Part shown: positions 51,821-56,687 of the stretch, piece after piece | How the letters are laid out: each line of letters begins with the position of its first letter | How positions within the stretch are numbered: position 1 is the stretch's first letter | Translations under genes and position numbers: made by a program | Notes under the pieces: generated by a model | The model's input: only the letters and a program-made list of their open reading frames with translations | The model's database searches: none | What the model was told of the DNA's origin: nothing | From: Spirochaetes bacterium GWB1_36_13 | Lineage (GTDB): Bacteria > Spirochaetota > GWB1-36-13 | Assembly (NCBI GenBank): GCA_001829155.1 | Contig: MIAO01000061.1 | Span: 31,714 to 95,713, forward strand | Direction of reading: 5' to 3' | Length of the DNA stretch: 64,000 nt

Positions 51821-51894
51821 GGGCTCATAGCTCAGTTGGTTAGAGCGGATGACTCATAATCATTAGGTCGGAGGTTCAAGTCCTCCTGGGCCCA
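51821..51894 (+). tRNA. tRNA with CAU anticodon (elongator tRNA-Met, or tRNA-Ile2 if lysidinylated); no encoded CCA
   Basis: A 74-nt cloverleaf traced by hand. The acceptor stem is GGGCTCA/TGGGCCC (7 bp, one G-U). D-arm GCTCAGTTGGTTAGAGC. Anticodon loop CTCATAA with U33-CAU-A37. T-arm GGAGGTTCAAGTCCTCC. The G1-C72 pair argues against an initiator. Confidence 0.85.
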
Positions 51895-51996
51895 TTTTTC
51901 ATTAAAACAATCTAGAATCTCTTCATTTTTTGAAGCTTTTAATATTAAGTAGTCAGGCTGTCGATTATTGAAAACTATTTCCATCAATCGTCTTGT

Positions 51997-52158
51997 TATA
52001 CTGAAATAATTTTAAATTGCAAAAAAACGACTCCTTTCTGTCATTCCCGCGAAGGCGGGAATCTATTGACAATAAGTGTTTTAAATTAAAGATTCCGGTC
52101 TTTTGCAAGCAAAAACCGGAATGACAATTTTGCATTTTATATTCAGTTATTGTATATA
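51997..52158 (+). repeat. MITE-like palindromic repeat, copy A
   Basis: Shares 5' TATACTGAAAT(A/G)ATTTTAAATTGCAAAAAA and 3' GACAATTTTGCATTTTATATTCAGTT termini and the GTCATTCC...GGAATGAC core with copies B and C. Confidence 0.75.
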
Positions 52159-52351
52159 TCATTGATATTTGTAAGTTGATCAGAAAGTGTCATTGTCTTT
52201 TCTGATGCAATCTTTCATAGTTTTGTTTTGCTCATTAATCGAAGCCATGCGGTCACTGAGCACAGCCGAAGTGACACCTCGACTCCGCTCGGTGTCCGAG
52301 TTCATTTAAATAATAATCGACAGCCTGAATAGTTATTTGAAAACTTTTTTA

Positions 52352-52514
52352 TATACTGAAATGATTTTAAATTGCAAAAAATCCATGTCATTCCCCGGCT
52401 TGACCGGGGAATCTATTGAGCAAGATAATCAATTTACTGGATTGTCCGGTCAAGCCGGACAATGACAATTTTGGGTTGAAAATATTTGCAATTTAAATTC
52501 AATTATGTATATAC
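52352..52514 (+). repeat. MITE-like palindromic repeat, copy B (diverged core with compensatory hairpin changes)
   Basis: Same termini as copy A. The core hairpin is CCCCGGCTTGACCGGGG instead of CCCGCGAAGGCGGG. The second arm GTCCGGTCAAGCCGGAC is the reverse complement of the first. Confidence 0.75.
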
Positions 52515-52651
52515 AATTGTGAGACATATCAAGCAAAAAAGGTATCTAAAATGAAATATAACTTTTCTTTAATAGATGGAAAAACATTTGTACATCCAAA
52601 AACATCTGAAAACCCACTCCTCTCCAGTAAAACCAGAGAGGAAAAAAGATT

Positions 52652-55216
52652 TTATTTTACTACAAAATTGACTAATTTATTAGGGACAAAAATTTCCTTC
52701 ACAATCGTTTTGCCTTCCATATGTTTGGAAACTGCTTCTTTTGCTTTTGCAATAATCGCCTCTTTTGGAGCATCCACCGGCATATCCAGATTGGCTCTGA
52801 GTTTTCCATTGACCTGAACCACAATTTTTACTTCGTTGTCGATCAGGAAAGACTCATTGTGAGACGGCCAGGAAAGCTCATGAATGGATTGGCTTTTTTC
52901 AGATAAAACGGAATAAAGCTCTTCTGAAATATGAGGTGCGATCGGAAAGAGGAGGCGGAGAAGGATCAGAGTTCCTTCTTTTAAGATTTTTTTATCTTCA
53001 TTGTTTTCAGGCTGAAAAGAAGTCAGATGGTTTAAATATTCCATCAGAAAGGCAATTCCTGTGTTGAACCGGTATTCTACTGTAAAATCTTCCGTTACTT
53101 TCTTAATGGTTTTATGGATGATTTTATTGATTTCAGCCCCGGATTTAGAGAGGTTTTCCAGTTTCAGGGTTTTCGGGTCAATATTTTTTAATTCTTCAAA
53201 ATTCTTTAAGGCTAGTTGAAAAATTCTTCTTAAAAATCGGGCAGCGCCTTCGATTCCGGTATCGCTCCATTCCAAATCTTTTTCCGGCGGGGCTGCAAAA
53301 AGCATAAAAACCCGGACTGTGTCGGCGCCGTATTTTTTCACCATTTCATCGGGATCGATACCGTTTTTCTTGGATTTCGACATTTTATCCACTTTCACAG
53401 TCAGTTCAGCCTGACAGTGAGGGCATTTTCCGTTATCTGTCTCAGAAGGCGGGATATATCCATGAGTTTTGCAGTGAAAAGAGTGGGCTACCACCATCCC
53501 TTGGGTAAGAAGTCTTTTAAAAGGTTCATCTGAATCCACCAAACCCAAATCCCGCATCACCTTGTGAAAAAATCGGGAGTAGAGAAGGTGCATCACAGCA
53601 TGCTCAATTCCGCCCACATACTGATCTACGCTCATCCAATAATTTCCTTCTGTTTTCTCAAAAGGGGCACTCTCGCATTTCGGAGAAGCGAAGCGGGCAT
53701 AATACCAGGATGAATCCACAAAAGTATCCATAGTATCGGTCTCTCTTCTGGCGTGGCTGCTTCCGCAGACAGGACAGGTCACATTCATAAAGGCTTTAGA
53801 GGTGGCAAGAGGGTTTCCTCCCTTTGAAAAATCCACATCTTCAGGCAAAATCACGGGAAGGTTTTCCAGTTTTTCAGGAACAATTCCGCATTTATCACAG
53901 TAAATCATCGGAATTGGGGTGCCCCAGTATCTTTGGCGGGATAGGAGCCAGTCTTTCAGGCGGTAATTGACTGTTTTGGTTCCGATCCCGATTTCTTCTG
54001 CTTTTTCGATGATTTTTTCAATCGCTGTTTTATTGTCAAGCCCTGAAAAATCAGAAGAATCGGTCAAAATTCCTTCTCCTGTATAGGCTTCTTTCATTTC
54101 AGAGACAGAAAGCTCGGTTCCCTTCGGCTGGATTACAACTTTGATCGGGAGATTGTATTTTTTTGCAAAGAGAAAGTCTCTCTGGTCGTGGGCAGGAACG
54201 CACATAACCGCGCCCGTGCCGTATTCCATCAAGACAAAATCAGCGGCGTAGAGAGGCGTTTTTTCGCCTGTAAAAGGGTGAGTCACATATTCTCCGGTAA
54301 AAACGCCGTTTTTATCCACACCTTCCGCTGTCCGCTCTATTTTGCTCTCTTTCTTGACTTTTTCGACAAAATTTTTCAGTTCAATATTTTCCGGTTTTTT
54401 TTCAAGGATTTTTTTAATCACGGGGTGCTCAGGAGCAACTGCCATATAGGTAACGCCGAAAATAGTATCGGGACGAGTGGTGAAAATAGGAAGGTCTTCA
54501 TTGTTCCATTTAAAATCAGCCTGAAGCCCGATTGATTTACCGATCCAGTTTTTCTGCATGGAAAGAACCCGTTCCGGCCATCCGCCTTCCAGTTCTTTAT
54601 GCCCTTCTAAAAGTTCTTCCGCGTATTGGGTGATTTTAAAATACCACTGGGAGAGTTCTTTCGGTTCCACTTCGCTCCCGCATCTCCAGCACTGACCGTC
54701 TTCCACCTGCTCATTGGCAAGAACAGTCTGACATTTTTCGCACCAGTTCACGGTTCCTTCTTTTTTTTCCACCAAGCCTTTTTTGAGCATTTTTAAAAAC
54801 AGCCACTGATTCCATTTATAGTAATCGGGTTTACAGGTAGCGATTTCCCTTTCCCAGTCGTAGGAAATTCCGATTTTCTGGATTTGGGACTTCATATTTT
54901 CAATGTTTTGAAAGGTCCATTTTGCGGGGTGAATCCCGTTGTCGATGGCTGCATTTTCAGCAGGGAGCCCGAAAGCGTCCCATCCGCCTGGATTCATCAC
55001 ATTAAACCCCTGGAGCCTCTTGATTCTGGAGATGACATCCCCAATGGTATAAACCCTCACATGCCCCATGTGAAGCTTTCCGGAAGGGTAGGCAAACATC
55101 ATTAAAACATAAAATTTTTCTTTTTCTTGATCTAGAACGGCTTTGGAATAATTTTTTTCTTCCCAGAGTTTTTGCCATTTTTTCTCTATTTCCCAGAATT
55201 GGTATTCTTTTTCCAT
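52652..55216 (-). CDS. leuS: Leucine--tRNA ligase
   Basis: HMGH (class I HIGH motif variant), a CP1 editing domain, and KMSKS. 854 aa. Confidence 0.95.
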
Positions 55217-55324
55217 GATTAAGCCTCTTTATCAAAATTTTCACTCATAAAAAATAATAAAAAAAAACTTTTTTTTTAAAAAGAGTGAAACATTTTTGGA
55301 TTAAAAAAGAATACTCTATCGATA

Positions 55325-55474
55325 TATACTGAAATGATTTTAAATTGCAAAAAAAAGACCCCTTCCGGTCATTCCCGCGAAGGCGGGAATCTATTGACAA
55401 TAAGTGTTTTAATTTTTTTTGCAAGCAAAATCTGAAATGACAGTTTTGCATTTTATATTCAGTTGTGTATAATA
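55325..55474 (+). repeat. MITE-like palindromic repeat, copy C (A-type core, partly degraded 3' arm)
   Basis: Near-identical to copy A through GTCATTCCCGCGAAGGCGGGAATCTATTGACAATAAGTGTTTTAA. There is a deletion in the second hairpin. Confidence 0.75.
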
Positions 55475-55556: not shown

Positions 55557-56687
55557 GTGACATTATTAAAAGGAAAATACGGCGAAGCAAAAATTTTTGC
55601 ATCTATGATTGAAGAAGAAGCGGTTGAGCAGATCAAAACTTTTTTGGATCATCAGGCGTTTGAAGGTTCTTCTATTGCAGTGATGCCGGATGTGCACAGC
55701 GGAAAAGGAAGCGTGGTCGGGTTTACGATGACAGCCAATGAATTTGTGATCCCCAATATTATCGGGGTCGATATCGGTTGCGGGGTTTTGGCATACCGTT
55801 TGGGAAAAATTGAGTTTCAGTTTGATGAACTGGATCGGTTTATCCGAAGAAGGATTCCATTCGGCTTTGAAGTCAATTCAAGTCTTCCGGATTCGCTCCC
55901 TTCCCTTTTTCCAAAAAAAATAAAGAAAATAACTGATAAAATCAGTTTGAATTATGAAAAAGTACTTTGTTCTATCGGATCATTAGGAGGAGGCAACCAC
56001 TATATAGAAATAGATCAGGAAGAAGAAAGCGGAGAGTACTGGCTCGTTATTCACAGCGGATCAAGAAATTTCGGGCTTCAGACAGCCAATTATCATCAAA
56101 AAAAAGCAAAAGAGTATAGTTTTAAAAAAAATCTGAAACTTCCGAAAGATCTGGAATACCTGCCTTTAAAAGAAGGAGGGGAAGAGTATCTGGAAGACAT
56201 GAAGACAGCCCAGGAACTGGCTCATTTAAACCGGATGGAGATGGCGGGGAGGATTGTCAGAGATTTTTTTAATCTGAAAGAAGAAAATCTTGAAAAAATT
56301 GAATCCATTCATAATTATATCAATTTTAAGGATAAAATCATCCGTAAGGGCGCTATTTCCGCTTATTCCGGCGAAGACTTGATTATTCCTTTAAATATGA
56401 GAGACGGAGCGATTCTTGGCAAGGGGAAGGGAAAAGAATCCTGGAATTTTTCCGCCCCCCATGGAGCTGGAAGGGTTTTATCCCGCACCAAGGCAAAGAA
56501 AAACATTTCTTTGAAAGATTATTATGAATCGATGAAGGGTGTCTGGAGCAGCTGCGTGAGTTTCAAAACACTCGATGAATCGCCTTTTGCCTACAAATCT
56601 TCAGATTCTATCATTAAAAATATTGAAGATTCTGTGGAAATTCAGAAGATTATCAAGCCTGTTTATAATTTCAAGGCAGAAAGTTGA
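55557..56687 (+). CDS. rtcB: RNA-splicing ligase RtcB
   Basis: GTG start with an AAGGAAG RBS. Motifs AVMPDVHSGKGS, CGV, GGNHY, HSGSRN and APHGAGR (metal-binding His/Cys and nucleophilic His). Confidence 0.85.
   Translation: MTLLKGKYGEAKIFASMIEEEAVEQIKTFLDHQAFEGSSIAVMPDVHSGKGSVVGFTMTANEFVIPNIIGVDIGCGVLAYRLGKIEFQFDELDRFIRRRIPFGFEVNSSLPDSLPSLFPKKIKKITDKISLNYEKVLCSIGSLGGGNHYIEIDQEEESGEYWLVIHSGSRNFGLQTANYHQKKAKEYSFKKNLKLPKDLEYLPLKEGGEEYLEDMKTAQELAHLNRMEMAGRIVRDFFNLKEENLEKIESIHNYINFKDKIIRKGAISAYSGEDLIIPLNMRDGAILGKGKGKESWNFSAPHGAGRVLSRTKAKKNISLKDYYESMKGVWSSCVSFKTLDESPFAYKSSDSIIKNIEDSVEIQKIIKPVYNFKAES

Follow-up and report, generated by a model that had tools for sequence, protein, structure and literature searches.

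MITEs (non-autonomous DNA transposons) with TA duplications and repeats that fold into hairpins are both well known. The Correia (NEMIS) MITEs of Neisseria are ~100 to 155 bp long and non-coding, with terminal inverted repeats (TIRs) of ~24 to 26 nt that start with TATA, and a terminal TA with target-site duplication. They could form a long stem-loop, carry putative promoters that point outward from their ends, and occur in size variants distinguished by an internal block. Also small, with terminal repeats and a TA target, are RUP of Streptococcus pneumoniae and further MITEs linked to IS630, and the IS630/Tc1-mariner elements (such as ISY100) are a family known for TA targets. Hairpin repeats of the NTS/SRM class (GTC-ATTCC...GGAAT-C), which include dRS3 of Neisseria, are bound and cut on single-stranded DNA by GIY-YIG nucleases of the Ssn type, and SsnA recognizes the hairpin motif as single-stranded DNA, not as RNA (PMC11893778). 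Ssn homologues have been described as mainly occurring in Pseudomonadati. Finally, the REPINs of REPIN-RAYT systems consist of two inverted palindromic units (REPs) with a short spacer, and are found between genes in tens of copies.

The element described here, from an uncultured spirochaete, shares the Correia features listed above. However, its TIR (TACTGAAATRATTTTAAATTGCAAAA) is unrelated to that of Correia (TATAGTGGATTAACAAAAATCAGGAC; consensus TATAG(C/T)GGATTAACAAAAATCAGGAC), with only the initial TATA in common, and the host belongs to a different phylum. Correia also carries an IHF site and not NTS-type hairpins; the NTS/dRS3 hairpins of Neisseria are separate repeats and not Correia cargo. 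Like RUP, the element is small and uses a TA target, but whereas the insertion sequence matching RUP (IS630-Spn1) is known, none with ends matching the spirochaete element was found in the ~0.5 Mb sampled, in plasmids or in GTDB species genomes. Its two hairpins have the same inverted-pair arrangement as NTS-x-NTS. Unlike those repeats, this pair is enclosed by 27-nt TIRs with a TA duplication and appears to move as one unit, and it occurs in a spirochaete with no ssn gene in the sampled ~0.5 Mb. The likeness to REPINs extends to sequence, since the Neisseria REPIN master sequence ATTCCCGCGCAGGCGGGAATC is one base away from hairpin 1 of the element. REPINs, in contrast, have neither TIRs outside the REPs nor a TA duplication, and no RAYT (Y1) was present among the families listed near the copies.

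Results

The window, by which we mean the whole 64-kb stretch of DNA that was analyzed, contains three copies of the element (A, B and C) in the same orientation, as an earlier note on this DNA had reported. The 28-nt 5′ terminus TATACTGAAATGATTTTAAATTGCAAAA is present at 51997, 52352 and 55325 with 0 or 1 mismatch (shuffled sequences give an expectation of 0), and there is no further match within the window. The limits given in the earlier note were right to within 3 nt and are revised here to 51997-52156/8 for copy A, 52352-52511 for copy B and 55325-55471 for copy C (Table 1). The termini of each copy do form imperfect inverted repeats, of ~27 nt; at most loci, the three window copies included, the 3′ end and the reverse-complemented 5′ terminus differ at 5 or 6 of 28 positions, and the terminal arms of copy B are 84% complementary over 32 nt. 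The element is non-coding, and only short spurious ORFs cross the copies. The surrounding DNA, previously put at ~30% GC, was measured locally at 38 to 39%.

Table 1. Positions of the element copies and associated features within the 64-kb window
Feature	Start	End	Strand	Remarks
Repeat X, left part, terminal repeat TCAGGCTGTCGATTATTG	51946	51996	+	Second dispersed repeat, interrupted by copy A
MITE copy A, A-type subfamily	51997	52158	+	Includes the TA duplication at its flanks plus an additional TA; nested inside repeat X
Copy A, 5′ TIR TACTGAAATAATTTTAAATTGCAAAA	51999	52024	+	TA at 51997-51998 is the target-site duplication
Copy A, hairpin 1	52039	52066	+	Exact SRM match; 2 mismatches to NTS consensus; stem of 8 bp, loop GAAG
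Copy A, hairpin 2	52091	52125	-	Minus strand GTCATTCCGG...CCGGAATC; SRM-like inverted partner of hairpin 1
Copy A, 3′ TIR TTTTGCATTTTATATTCAGTTATTGTA	52128	52154	+	TA at 52155-52156 is the duplication; extra TA at 52157-52158
Repeat X, right part	52159	52335	+	
MITE copy B, B-type subfamily	52352	52511	+	TA to TA
Copy B, hairpin 1 TGTCATTCCCCGGCTTGACCGGGGAATCTAT	52386	52416	+	Exact SRM pattern match
Copy B, hairpin 2	52440	52466	-	Hairpin 1 inverted, with compensated changes at two stem positions (ATTGTCCGG/CCGGACAAT)
Copy B, 3′ TIR	52485	52509	+	
MITE copy C, decayed A-type	55325	55471	+	Divergent leuS-rtcB intergenic region; ~12 nt of hairpin 2 deleted
Copy C, hairpin 1	55367	55394	+	NTS-like, 2 mismatches; fails strict SRM only at the base before GTC
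Copy C, hairpin 2 remnant	55416	55441	-	Left arm missing
Promoter-like site TTTGCA-17-TATAAT (10/12)	55445	55473	+	3′ terminal repeat plus flank; faces rtcB, 84 nt upstream; consensus match only

Copy A interrupts a second dispersed repeat, here called repeat X. A comparison of three filled and nine empty paralogous copies of X identified the target-site duplication as TA. The nine empty copies read ...cttgt/cttct-TA-tcattgat, while the filled copy at locus L021 reads ...cttgt-TA-TACTGAAAT...CTGTA-TA-tcattgat. The junctions of copy A are the same as those at L021, plus one extra TA, and the third copy of X (L007) is filled at the same TA by a different subtype. No direct repeat longer than TA was found in 27 flank pairs. 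Judged by these paralogous empty X sites, on which the TA duplication rests, the element inserts at TA, duplicates it and can nest within another repeat. Insertion polymorphism between two assemblies was not found; a search with joined flanks matched only the paralogous empty X sites. Relatives offered no usable orthologous loci, and hence no orthologous empty sites, because the nearest LeuS homologues are only 62 to 68% identical and lie on contigs without shared synteny.

As the earlier note had anticipated, the element recurs elsewhere in the genome, as a family of ~45 to 50 unique copies dispersed across numerous contigs of a single MAG; copies so many and so scattered rule out a local duplication. 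Scanning a metagenome for the 5′ terminus returned 47 loci. The terminus is present in 50 unique copies, 31 of them full-length, almost all from the uncultured groundwater organism represented by the Rifle MAG “Spirochaetes bacterium GWB1_36_13,” and proteins at the copy-bearing loci bear the same MAG name as LeuS of the window. The element is ~120 to 185 bp long, with measured lengths of 122 to 183 bp that lie well inside the bound of ~300 bp for bacterial MITEs. A full copy consists of TA, a TIR of 26 to 27 nt, a linker, hairpin 1, an AT-rich spacer of ~26 nt, hairpin 2 (inverted), a linker, the second TIR and TA, and the element ends are TACTGAAAT...TTGCAAAA. Nearly all full copies are intergenic (29 of 31 overlap no ORF of at least 120 aa), often within 100 nt of a gene end and in mixed orientation relative to neighboring genes. 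There are at least two subfamilies, an older A and a younger B, together with chimeras (L039, with an A-type hairpin 1 and a B-type right half), deletion derivatives (L020, L021 and L025) and a nested module in L013.

The 25-nt 5′ terminus gave 0 matches in 185,579 GTDB species genomes (a collection without the MAG itself), and in a plasmid collection the terminal repeats had no match, only the NTS hairpin being matched (in Neisseria, Legionella and Sphingomonas). The terminal repeats thus provide no link to a named IS family and, going by these sequence collections, the family was not seen outside the lineage of GWB1_36_13.

The hairpins described in the earlier note are present, but not all are intact, because in copy C the left arm (~12 nt) of hairpin 2 is missing. 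Hairpin 1 is GTCATTCCCGCGAAGGCGGGAATC in both copies A and C, and the hairpins of copy B are CCCCGGCTTGACCGGGG and GTCCGGTCAAGCCGGAC. Predicted single-strand DNA folds were far more stable than those of shuffled sequences (-28.8 kcal/mol, z -6.1, for A; -39.7, z -10.2, for B; -27.4, z -7.0, for C). Using published motif definitions and GTC/C determinants (PMC11893778), we searched for the SRM pattern HGTCWYN(0-2)YYVSBRHN(0-5)WNVSBRGN(0-2)RNCYNB. Hairpin 1 matches it exactly in copies A and B (0.04 matches expected in shuffles), copy C fails at one position, and hairpin 1 of A and C matches the NTS consensus with 2 mismatches. Each of the four hairpins of A and B retains the 3 nt GTC in front of its palindrome and the C behind it, and in the predicted folds each is a single-stranded DNA hairpin with GTC upstream and C downstream. 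In 309 kb of the genome, 21 of 26 strict SRM matches lie inside the MITE. By these motif matches, the two hairpins of the element belong to the NTS/SRM class. They are inverted and lie 26 nt apart, within the 130 bp that bounds the two inverted REPs of a REPIN.

More than 120 GTDB species genomes, spread over many phyla, contain the exact 24-mer of hairpin 1, and 79 of 150 occurrences have an inverted partner no more than 200 nt away. This inverted architecture without outer repeats is common in other phyla. GIY-YIG genes adjoin the 24-mer in seven loci, and are flanked by it in L122 and L128. An Ssn-type GIY-YIG gene (cd10448) was not found by tblastn in ~0.5 Mb, comprising the window and loci L001 to L051 and amounting to part of the genome.

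The differences between copies A and B had been read as compensatory changes produced by selection on structure. Instead, A and B represent two subfamilies whose hairpin modules differ entirely, in length as well, so these differences are alternative modules and not RNA covariation. Within subfamilies, both members of a stem pair had changed in only 1 of 23 A-type pairs and 1 of 53 B-type pairs, most stem substitutions break pairs, and the covariation terms are positive (that is, unfavorable). No Rfam family reached threshold for the element copies. Copy B does align end to end with WsnRNA46 (RF02625, Wolbachia sRNA 46), in a match that takes in the GTCAT ends of the two hairpins as well as the AATTGATTAT motif of the spacer, but its score of 42.1 bits (E ~1e-7) falls short of the gathering score of 65.3, so that copy B does not qualify as a member. 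The likeness is most probably due to an SRM-doublet repeat common to both and not to a common RNA gene.

Discussion

The picture of a MITE-like mobile repeat family put forward in the earlier note is borne out by the dispersed copies, terminal inverted repeats, TA duplication and intergenic location of the element. We therefore consider it probable that the three repeats are copies of a MITE, as the filled and empty X copies in particular argue, with the hairpin doublet as cargo or a co-opted module and with movement by a TA-specific transposase acting in trans. Duplication of a TA target on insertion is also what a MITE derived from an IS630/Tc1-mariner element should show. Given this target, movement would be of the cut-and-paste type, catalyzed by a TA-specific DDE transposase of the IS630/Tc1-mariner kind that is supplied in trans and recognizes the terminal repeats. 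We can only infer such an enzyme, since no transposase, ssn or RAYT gene was present in the ~0.5 Mb sampled. A self-comparison of 0.37 Mb revealed no IS-sized repeat that could be an autonomous partner. Among the Pfam families listed for 113 ORFs within 1.5 kb of copies, a listing that leaves out families matched only once, DDE, Y1 and GIY-YIG were absent and the genes were ordinary host genes, as were those listed for 10 ORFs adjoining truncated copies. A MITE family also explains why short-read contigs stop inside or just beyond copy B, breaking the assembly near leuS in this groundwater spirochaete, and the annotation of spurious small ORFs near leuS (peptides with DSRLRGND, IPAKAGI or SFPRRRES).

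At locus L033, a PD-(D/E)XK “Rpn/TIGR01784” gene is flanked by two copies at 10 nt, and other such genes lie near copies in L019 and L038.

Genes of this kind were considered as a source of the mobilizing enzyme, an idea that we rejected as unsupported because five further loci, retrieved for three close homologues, have no flanking copy.

The hairpins are the best-conserved segments of the element (0.96 to 1.0, against 0.74 to 0.89 elsewhere), which suggests that their sequence, beyond structure alone, may be maintained; subfamily structure or gene conversion could also account for this. Under the MITE explanation, the doublet would fold when the DNA becomes single-stranded. An alternative is that mobility is itself driven by the hairpins on single-stranded DNA, the inverted doublet being the active part, moved in REPIN-like fashion by a RAYT or processed by an Ssn-type GIY-YIG enzyme, with the outer repeats a conserved extension. 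This would fit a core in which two inverted SRM-like hairpins retain both GTC and C and are so highly conserved, the doublets that lack outer repeats in other phyla, the GIY-YIG genes flanked by the 24-mer, and the fact that the same Neisseria 21-mer has been treated as a REPIN that goes with a group-2 RAYT. We nonetheless regard it as unlikely. REPINs and NTS doublets have not been reported with a TA duplication or 27-nt TIRs, both of which are conserved here in ~50 copies, and the searches described above were negative, both for GIY-YIG by tblastn in ~0.5 Mb and for GIY-YIG and Y1 among the families listed near the copies. Moreover, L020, L021 and the L025 mini-copy have lost one or both hairpins and still keep both termini.

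Rather unlikely, too, is a true hybrid, in which a TA-duplicating MITE serves as the vehicle that spreads target hairpins of the Ssn type through a spirochaete genome or, in a stronger form, in which a hairpin-specific single-strand enzyme and not a DDE transposase moves the element with its terminal repeats and TA duplication. If either were true, it would join two repeat systems described separately so far (MITEs and NTS/SRM-Ssn), and would point to a way in which target sites of nucleases, with an effect on recombination or DNA uptake, come to lie beside genes.

The copies might instead persist as host-exapted regulatory elements, supplying outward promoters, terminators or mRNA-processing hairpins. 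Correia provides a precedent, as it has putative promoters in divergent orientation and its transcripts have been proposed to be processed by RNase III, and the intergenic position of the copies, often close to gene ends, is in keeping with this. TTGACA-like motifs had earlier been proposed as outward promoters; the internal TTGACA belongs to none of the promoter-like pairs in the scan. A/C-type copies have just one good consensus match, TTTGCA-17-TATAAT, which lies at the 3′ end of copy C between the divergent leuS and rtcB, and through which copy C may provide rtcB with a promoter. However, such sites are consensus matches only, and most of the 20 found by the scan (8.6 expected) fall outside the elements. 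The mixed orientation of the copies also speaks against a regulatory role, which we find quite improbable as the explanation of the family. Because it accounts for neither origin nor spread, it is at best an addition to the MITE explanation. As for a structured non-coding RNA gene family with stems maintained by compensatory mutation, the strong predicted folds, the subthreshold likeness of copy B to WsnRNA46 and the intact yet different hairpins of A and B hardly offset the lack of an Rfam match, the rarity of double changes, the loss of a hairpin in copy C and several other copies, the transposon-like termini and TA duplication, and the recognition of the motif by SsnA as single-stranded DNA (PMC11893778), so that this reading is largely refuted already and extremely improbable.

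The element that we describe as a probable MITE is a modest variation on known elements and introduces no new principle. It does add a spirochaete to the hosts of NTS/SRM hairpins, which have been described recently, and here they would travel as an internal module of a MITE with TIRs and a TA duplication and not as bare doublets. It thereby offers a concrete system in which to ask if hairpins of this kind act as selfish cargo, as cofactors in transposition or as sites useful to the host.

Window copies and dispersal of the family

The three same-orientation repeats around tRNA-Met and leuS (copies A, B and C in the table) are real. The 28-nt 5′ terminus TATACTGAAATGATTTTAAATTGCAAAA begins each of them with 0 to 1 mismatch and has no further match in the window, where the shuffle expectation is 0. 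As the earlier note had it, the termini are imperfect inverted repeats: the 3′ end differs from the reverse complement of the 5′ end at 5 to 6 of 28 positions in all three copies and in most other loci, and the terminal arms of copy B are 84% complementary over 32 nt. The copies are built around two GC-rich hairpins, hairpin 2 being inverted relative to hairpin 1. Copies A and C both contain GTCATTCCCGCGAAGGCGGGAATC exactly, and folding energies as single-stranded DNA are far beyond those of shuffles (A, −28.8 kcal/mol, z −6.1; B, −39.7, z −10.2; C, −27.4, z −7.0). The hairpins were said to be kept intact, but in copy C ca. 12 nt are deleted and the left arm of hairpin 2 is gone. GC around the copies is 38 to 39%, not the ca. 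30% reported before. Two mechanically called ORFs crossing the MITEs encode ...SIDSRLRGNDRK...; they are translations of the hairpin, and a likely origin of spurious "hypothetical proteins" in annotations.

Coordinates of the MITE copies, their surroundings and related features in other loci
Feature	Locus	Position	Strand	Remark
tRNA-Met(CAT)	window	51821-51894		
Repeat X	window	51946-51996 plus 52159-52335		split by copy A
ORF, 65 aa	window	51965-52162	-	crosses MITE
Copy A	window	51997-52158	+	A-type
Copy B	window	52352-52511	+	B-type
WsnRNA46 match	window	52369-52486	-	in copy B
leuS	window	52652-55216	-	own terminator at 52617-52643
ORF, 68 aa	window	55245-55451	-	crosses MITE
Copy C	window	55325-55471	+	decayed A-type
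Promoter-like site	window	55445-55473		faces rtcB
rtcB	window	55557-56687		
Repeat X, examples	L007; L013; L028; L045	9259-9455; 9577-9793; 423-635; 4456-4662		
PD-(D/E)XK gene	L033	193-1424		"Rpn/TIGR01784 putative transposase"
PD-(D/E)XK paralogues	L019; L038	4287-5198; 55-573 and 1727-2638		near MITE copies
Other palindromic repeat	L019; L038	4030-4130, 5190-5252; 620-680, 1440-1560		flanks PD-(D/E)XK genes
GIY-YIG gene, 95 aa	L122; L128	5162-5515; 2610-2969		between inverted exact 24-mers; unrelated phyla

LeuS of the window shares 100% identity with LeuS of the MAG "Spirochaetes bacterium GWB1_36_13" from Rifle groundwater. Scanning JGI metagenome contigs for 23 nt of the 5′ terminus gave 47 loci. 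Because proteins encoded in three of them carry the same MAG name, almost all of the loci come from elsewhere in this genome or population. De-duplication left 50 unique copies that have the 5′ terminus; 31 of these are full length and end in the canonical 3′ terminus, and 29 of the 31 lie clear of every ORF of at least 120 aa. Two further metagenome datasets also contain copies, at 90 to 91% identity to copy A (L032 775-926, Ga0209416; L033, Ga0116156). The terminus had no match in a scan of 185,579 species genomes, and the nearest LeuS relatives are 62 to 68% identical and lack synteny. Three of the four short-read leuS contigs (L001 to L004; ENA and Logan) end inside copy B, and the fourth ends 24 nt past it in a second dispersed repeat, X, which is the typical behavior of a high-copy repeat.

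Target site and mobilization

Copy A is nested in repeat X, which is ca. 225 bp long, is bounded by terminal inverted repeats different from those of the MITE (TCAGGCTGTCGATTATTG), contains a palindrome rich in GC (GGTCACTGAGC..GCCGAAGTGAC), and is present in at least 14 copies in the sampled loci. Nine empty X copies read ...cttgt/cttct-TA-tcattgat; the filled copy in L021 reads ...cttgt-TA-TACTGAAAT...CTGTA-TA-tcattgat, and the one in the window reads identically apart from one extra TA. This delimits the element proper as TACTGAAAT...GTA, with TA duplicated. No direct repeat longer than TA was found in 27 flank pairs, the flanks being AT/TA-rich. A third filled X copy (L007) holds a B-type element at the same TA, and three copies filled at one TA make X a preferred target.

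A MITE is defined by terminal repeats, TA duplication and dispersal such as these, and the earlier reading of the repeats as mobile elements is borne out. TA duplication is a hallmark of IS630/Tc1-mariner-type transposition, and we infer mobilization of this type, by which the MITE would be moved in trans. No IS-sized repeat that might be the autonomous partner was found in 0.37 Mb. Neither DDE transposase, RAYT nor GIY-YIG was present among Pfam families with more than one match in 113 ORFs lying within 1.5 kb of copies, or in 10 ORFs beside cut-off copies, and tblastn gave no GIY-YIG match in ca. 0.5 Mb.

A PD-(D/E)XK gene in L033 has same-orientation MITE copies 10 nt away on both sides, and paralogues lie near copies in L019 and L038. 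The L033 gene and its counterpart in GWB1_36_13 share only 82% identity. The linkage to the MITE looks coincidental, as five loci (L174 to L178) of three close homologues lack flanking copies. A different GC-rich palindromic repeat, AACTCACCCCCT...AGAGGGGG...ATGAGTT, flanks PD-(D/E)XK genes in L019 and L038; several mosaic palindromic modules seem to be abundant in this genome.

Subfamilies and the "compensatory" changes

Copies A and B belong to two subfamilies, A-type and B-type. Median pairwise identity is higher in B-type (0.965; n = 8) than in A-type copies (0.87; n = 16), indicating that B is younger. The family is mosaic: rearranged forms include a chimera joining a B-type right half to an A-type hairpin 1 (L039), deletion derivatives (L020, L021, a 61-bp mini-copy in L025 and window copy C) and copies with an extra nested module (L013, L026 and L041). 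The 3′ end is noncanonical in L011, L016, L025 (9337-9488), L035 (3253-3420), L040 and L050, and likewise in L014, L037 and L047. Alternative 3′ termini joined to the MITE 5′ half are GGCGGTCATTTTATAATCAGTTTA.TATAG or TTTTTAGAACT.CC.TATA; this sharing of a 5′ half by differing termini points to recombination between different MITE families.

The A/B differences had been attributed to selection on secondary structure, as for a structured RNA. The hairpins of the two types are, however, whole modules unlike in both length and sequence. Within subfamilies, RNAalifold gave double changes in 1 of 23 pairs (A) and 1 of 53 (B), unfavorable covariation terms, and stem substitutions that mostly break pairs, all of which argue against that attribution. 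The sole clear compensated difference lies within B, where hairpin 2 is hairpin 1 inverted, GT/AC having replaced CC/GG in a single event that is fixed in all B copies. Column identity peaks in the hairpins (A, 0.96; B, 0.99 to 1.0; linkers, 0.74 to 0.90; spacer, 0.87 to 0.92; 3′ terminal repeat, 0.89 to 0.96). Together, these patterns fit sequence-specific recognition of DNA hairpins rather than selection on RNA structure.

The hairpins as NTS/SRM motifs

The hairpins resemble NTS/SRM (Ssn-related motif), a published hairpin target of GIY-YIG Ssn nucleases. Each, in its own orientation, reads GTC-ATTCC...GGAAT-C, and none of the four A- and B-type hairpins has lost GTC or C. The degenerate SRM is matched exactly by hairpin 1 in both A and B (shuffle expectation, 0.04), and A and C have two mismatches to the 28-nt Neisseria NTS consensus CGTCATTCCCGCGMAVGCGGGAATCYRG, within which the classical dRS3 repeat falls (PMC11893778). 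SsnA, a small GIY-YIG nuclease, binds and cuts NTS as single-stranded DNA only, not as RNA or double-stranded DNA; the C immediately following the palindrome matters most for binding and the three bases preceding the palindrome for cleavage, and altering the sequence with the hairpin retained abolishes activity (PMC11893778).

Among the matches listed, the exact hairpin-1 24-mer occurs in over 120 genomes of different species (Bacteroidota, several proteobacterial classes, Chloroflexota, Planctomycetota, Patescibacteria, Nitrospirota and also Rickettsia), has an inverted partner within 200 nt in 79 of 150 occurrences (median spacer, 40 nt), and mostly lacks an extended outer inverted repeat. 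A small GIY-YIG gene lies beside or between 24-mer modules in seven loci. A 95-aa GIY-YIG gene with inverted exact 24-mers on both sides, found in unrelated phyla (L122 and L128; also L081, L132, L161, L129 and L130), is the published NTS-ssnA-NTS unit (PMC11893778). Copy B also aligns, spacer motif AATTGATTAT included, with Rfam WsnRNA46 of Wolbachia, at 42 bits against a threshold of 65 (E about 1e-7). Wolbachia is listed among SRM-rich genera (PMC11893778), and the alignment suggests that the WsnRNA46 family is built on an SRM-doublet repeat.

Relation to known elements

Correia and RUP-type MITEs share TA duplication, terminal repeats and inferred trans-mobilization with this MITE, but their ends are unrelated, which places it outside both families; its core belongs to the NTS/SRM (REPIN-like) class. 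TTGACA-like motifs had been put forward as outward promoters, yet internal TTGACA lies in none of the promoter-like pairs scanned. The best A/C-type site, TTTGCA-17-TATAAT, is composed of the copy C 3′ terminal repeat plus flank and, as a consensus match only, resembles the promoters proposed at the ends of Correia elements.

We found no description of SRM doublets enclosed in a MITE with terminal repeats and TA duplication, and the paper on Ssn does not mention MITEs. The element is a variation on kinds already known. Its copies break up assemblies of the GWB1_36_13 MAG, and since 21 of the 26 strict SRM matches in 309 kb of this spirochaete are MITE hairpin 1, the motif spreads here nearly wholly as MITE cargo.
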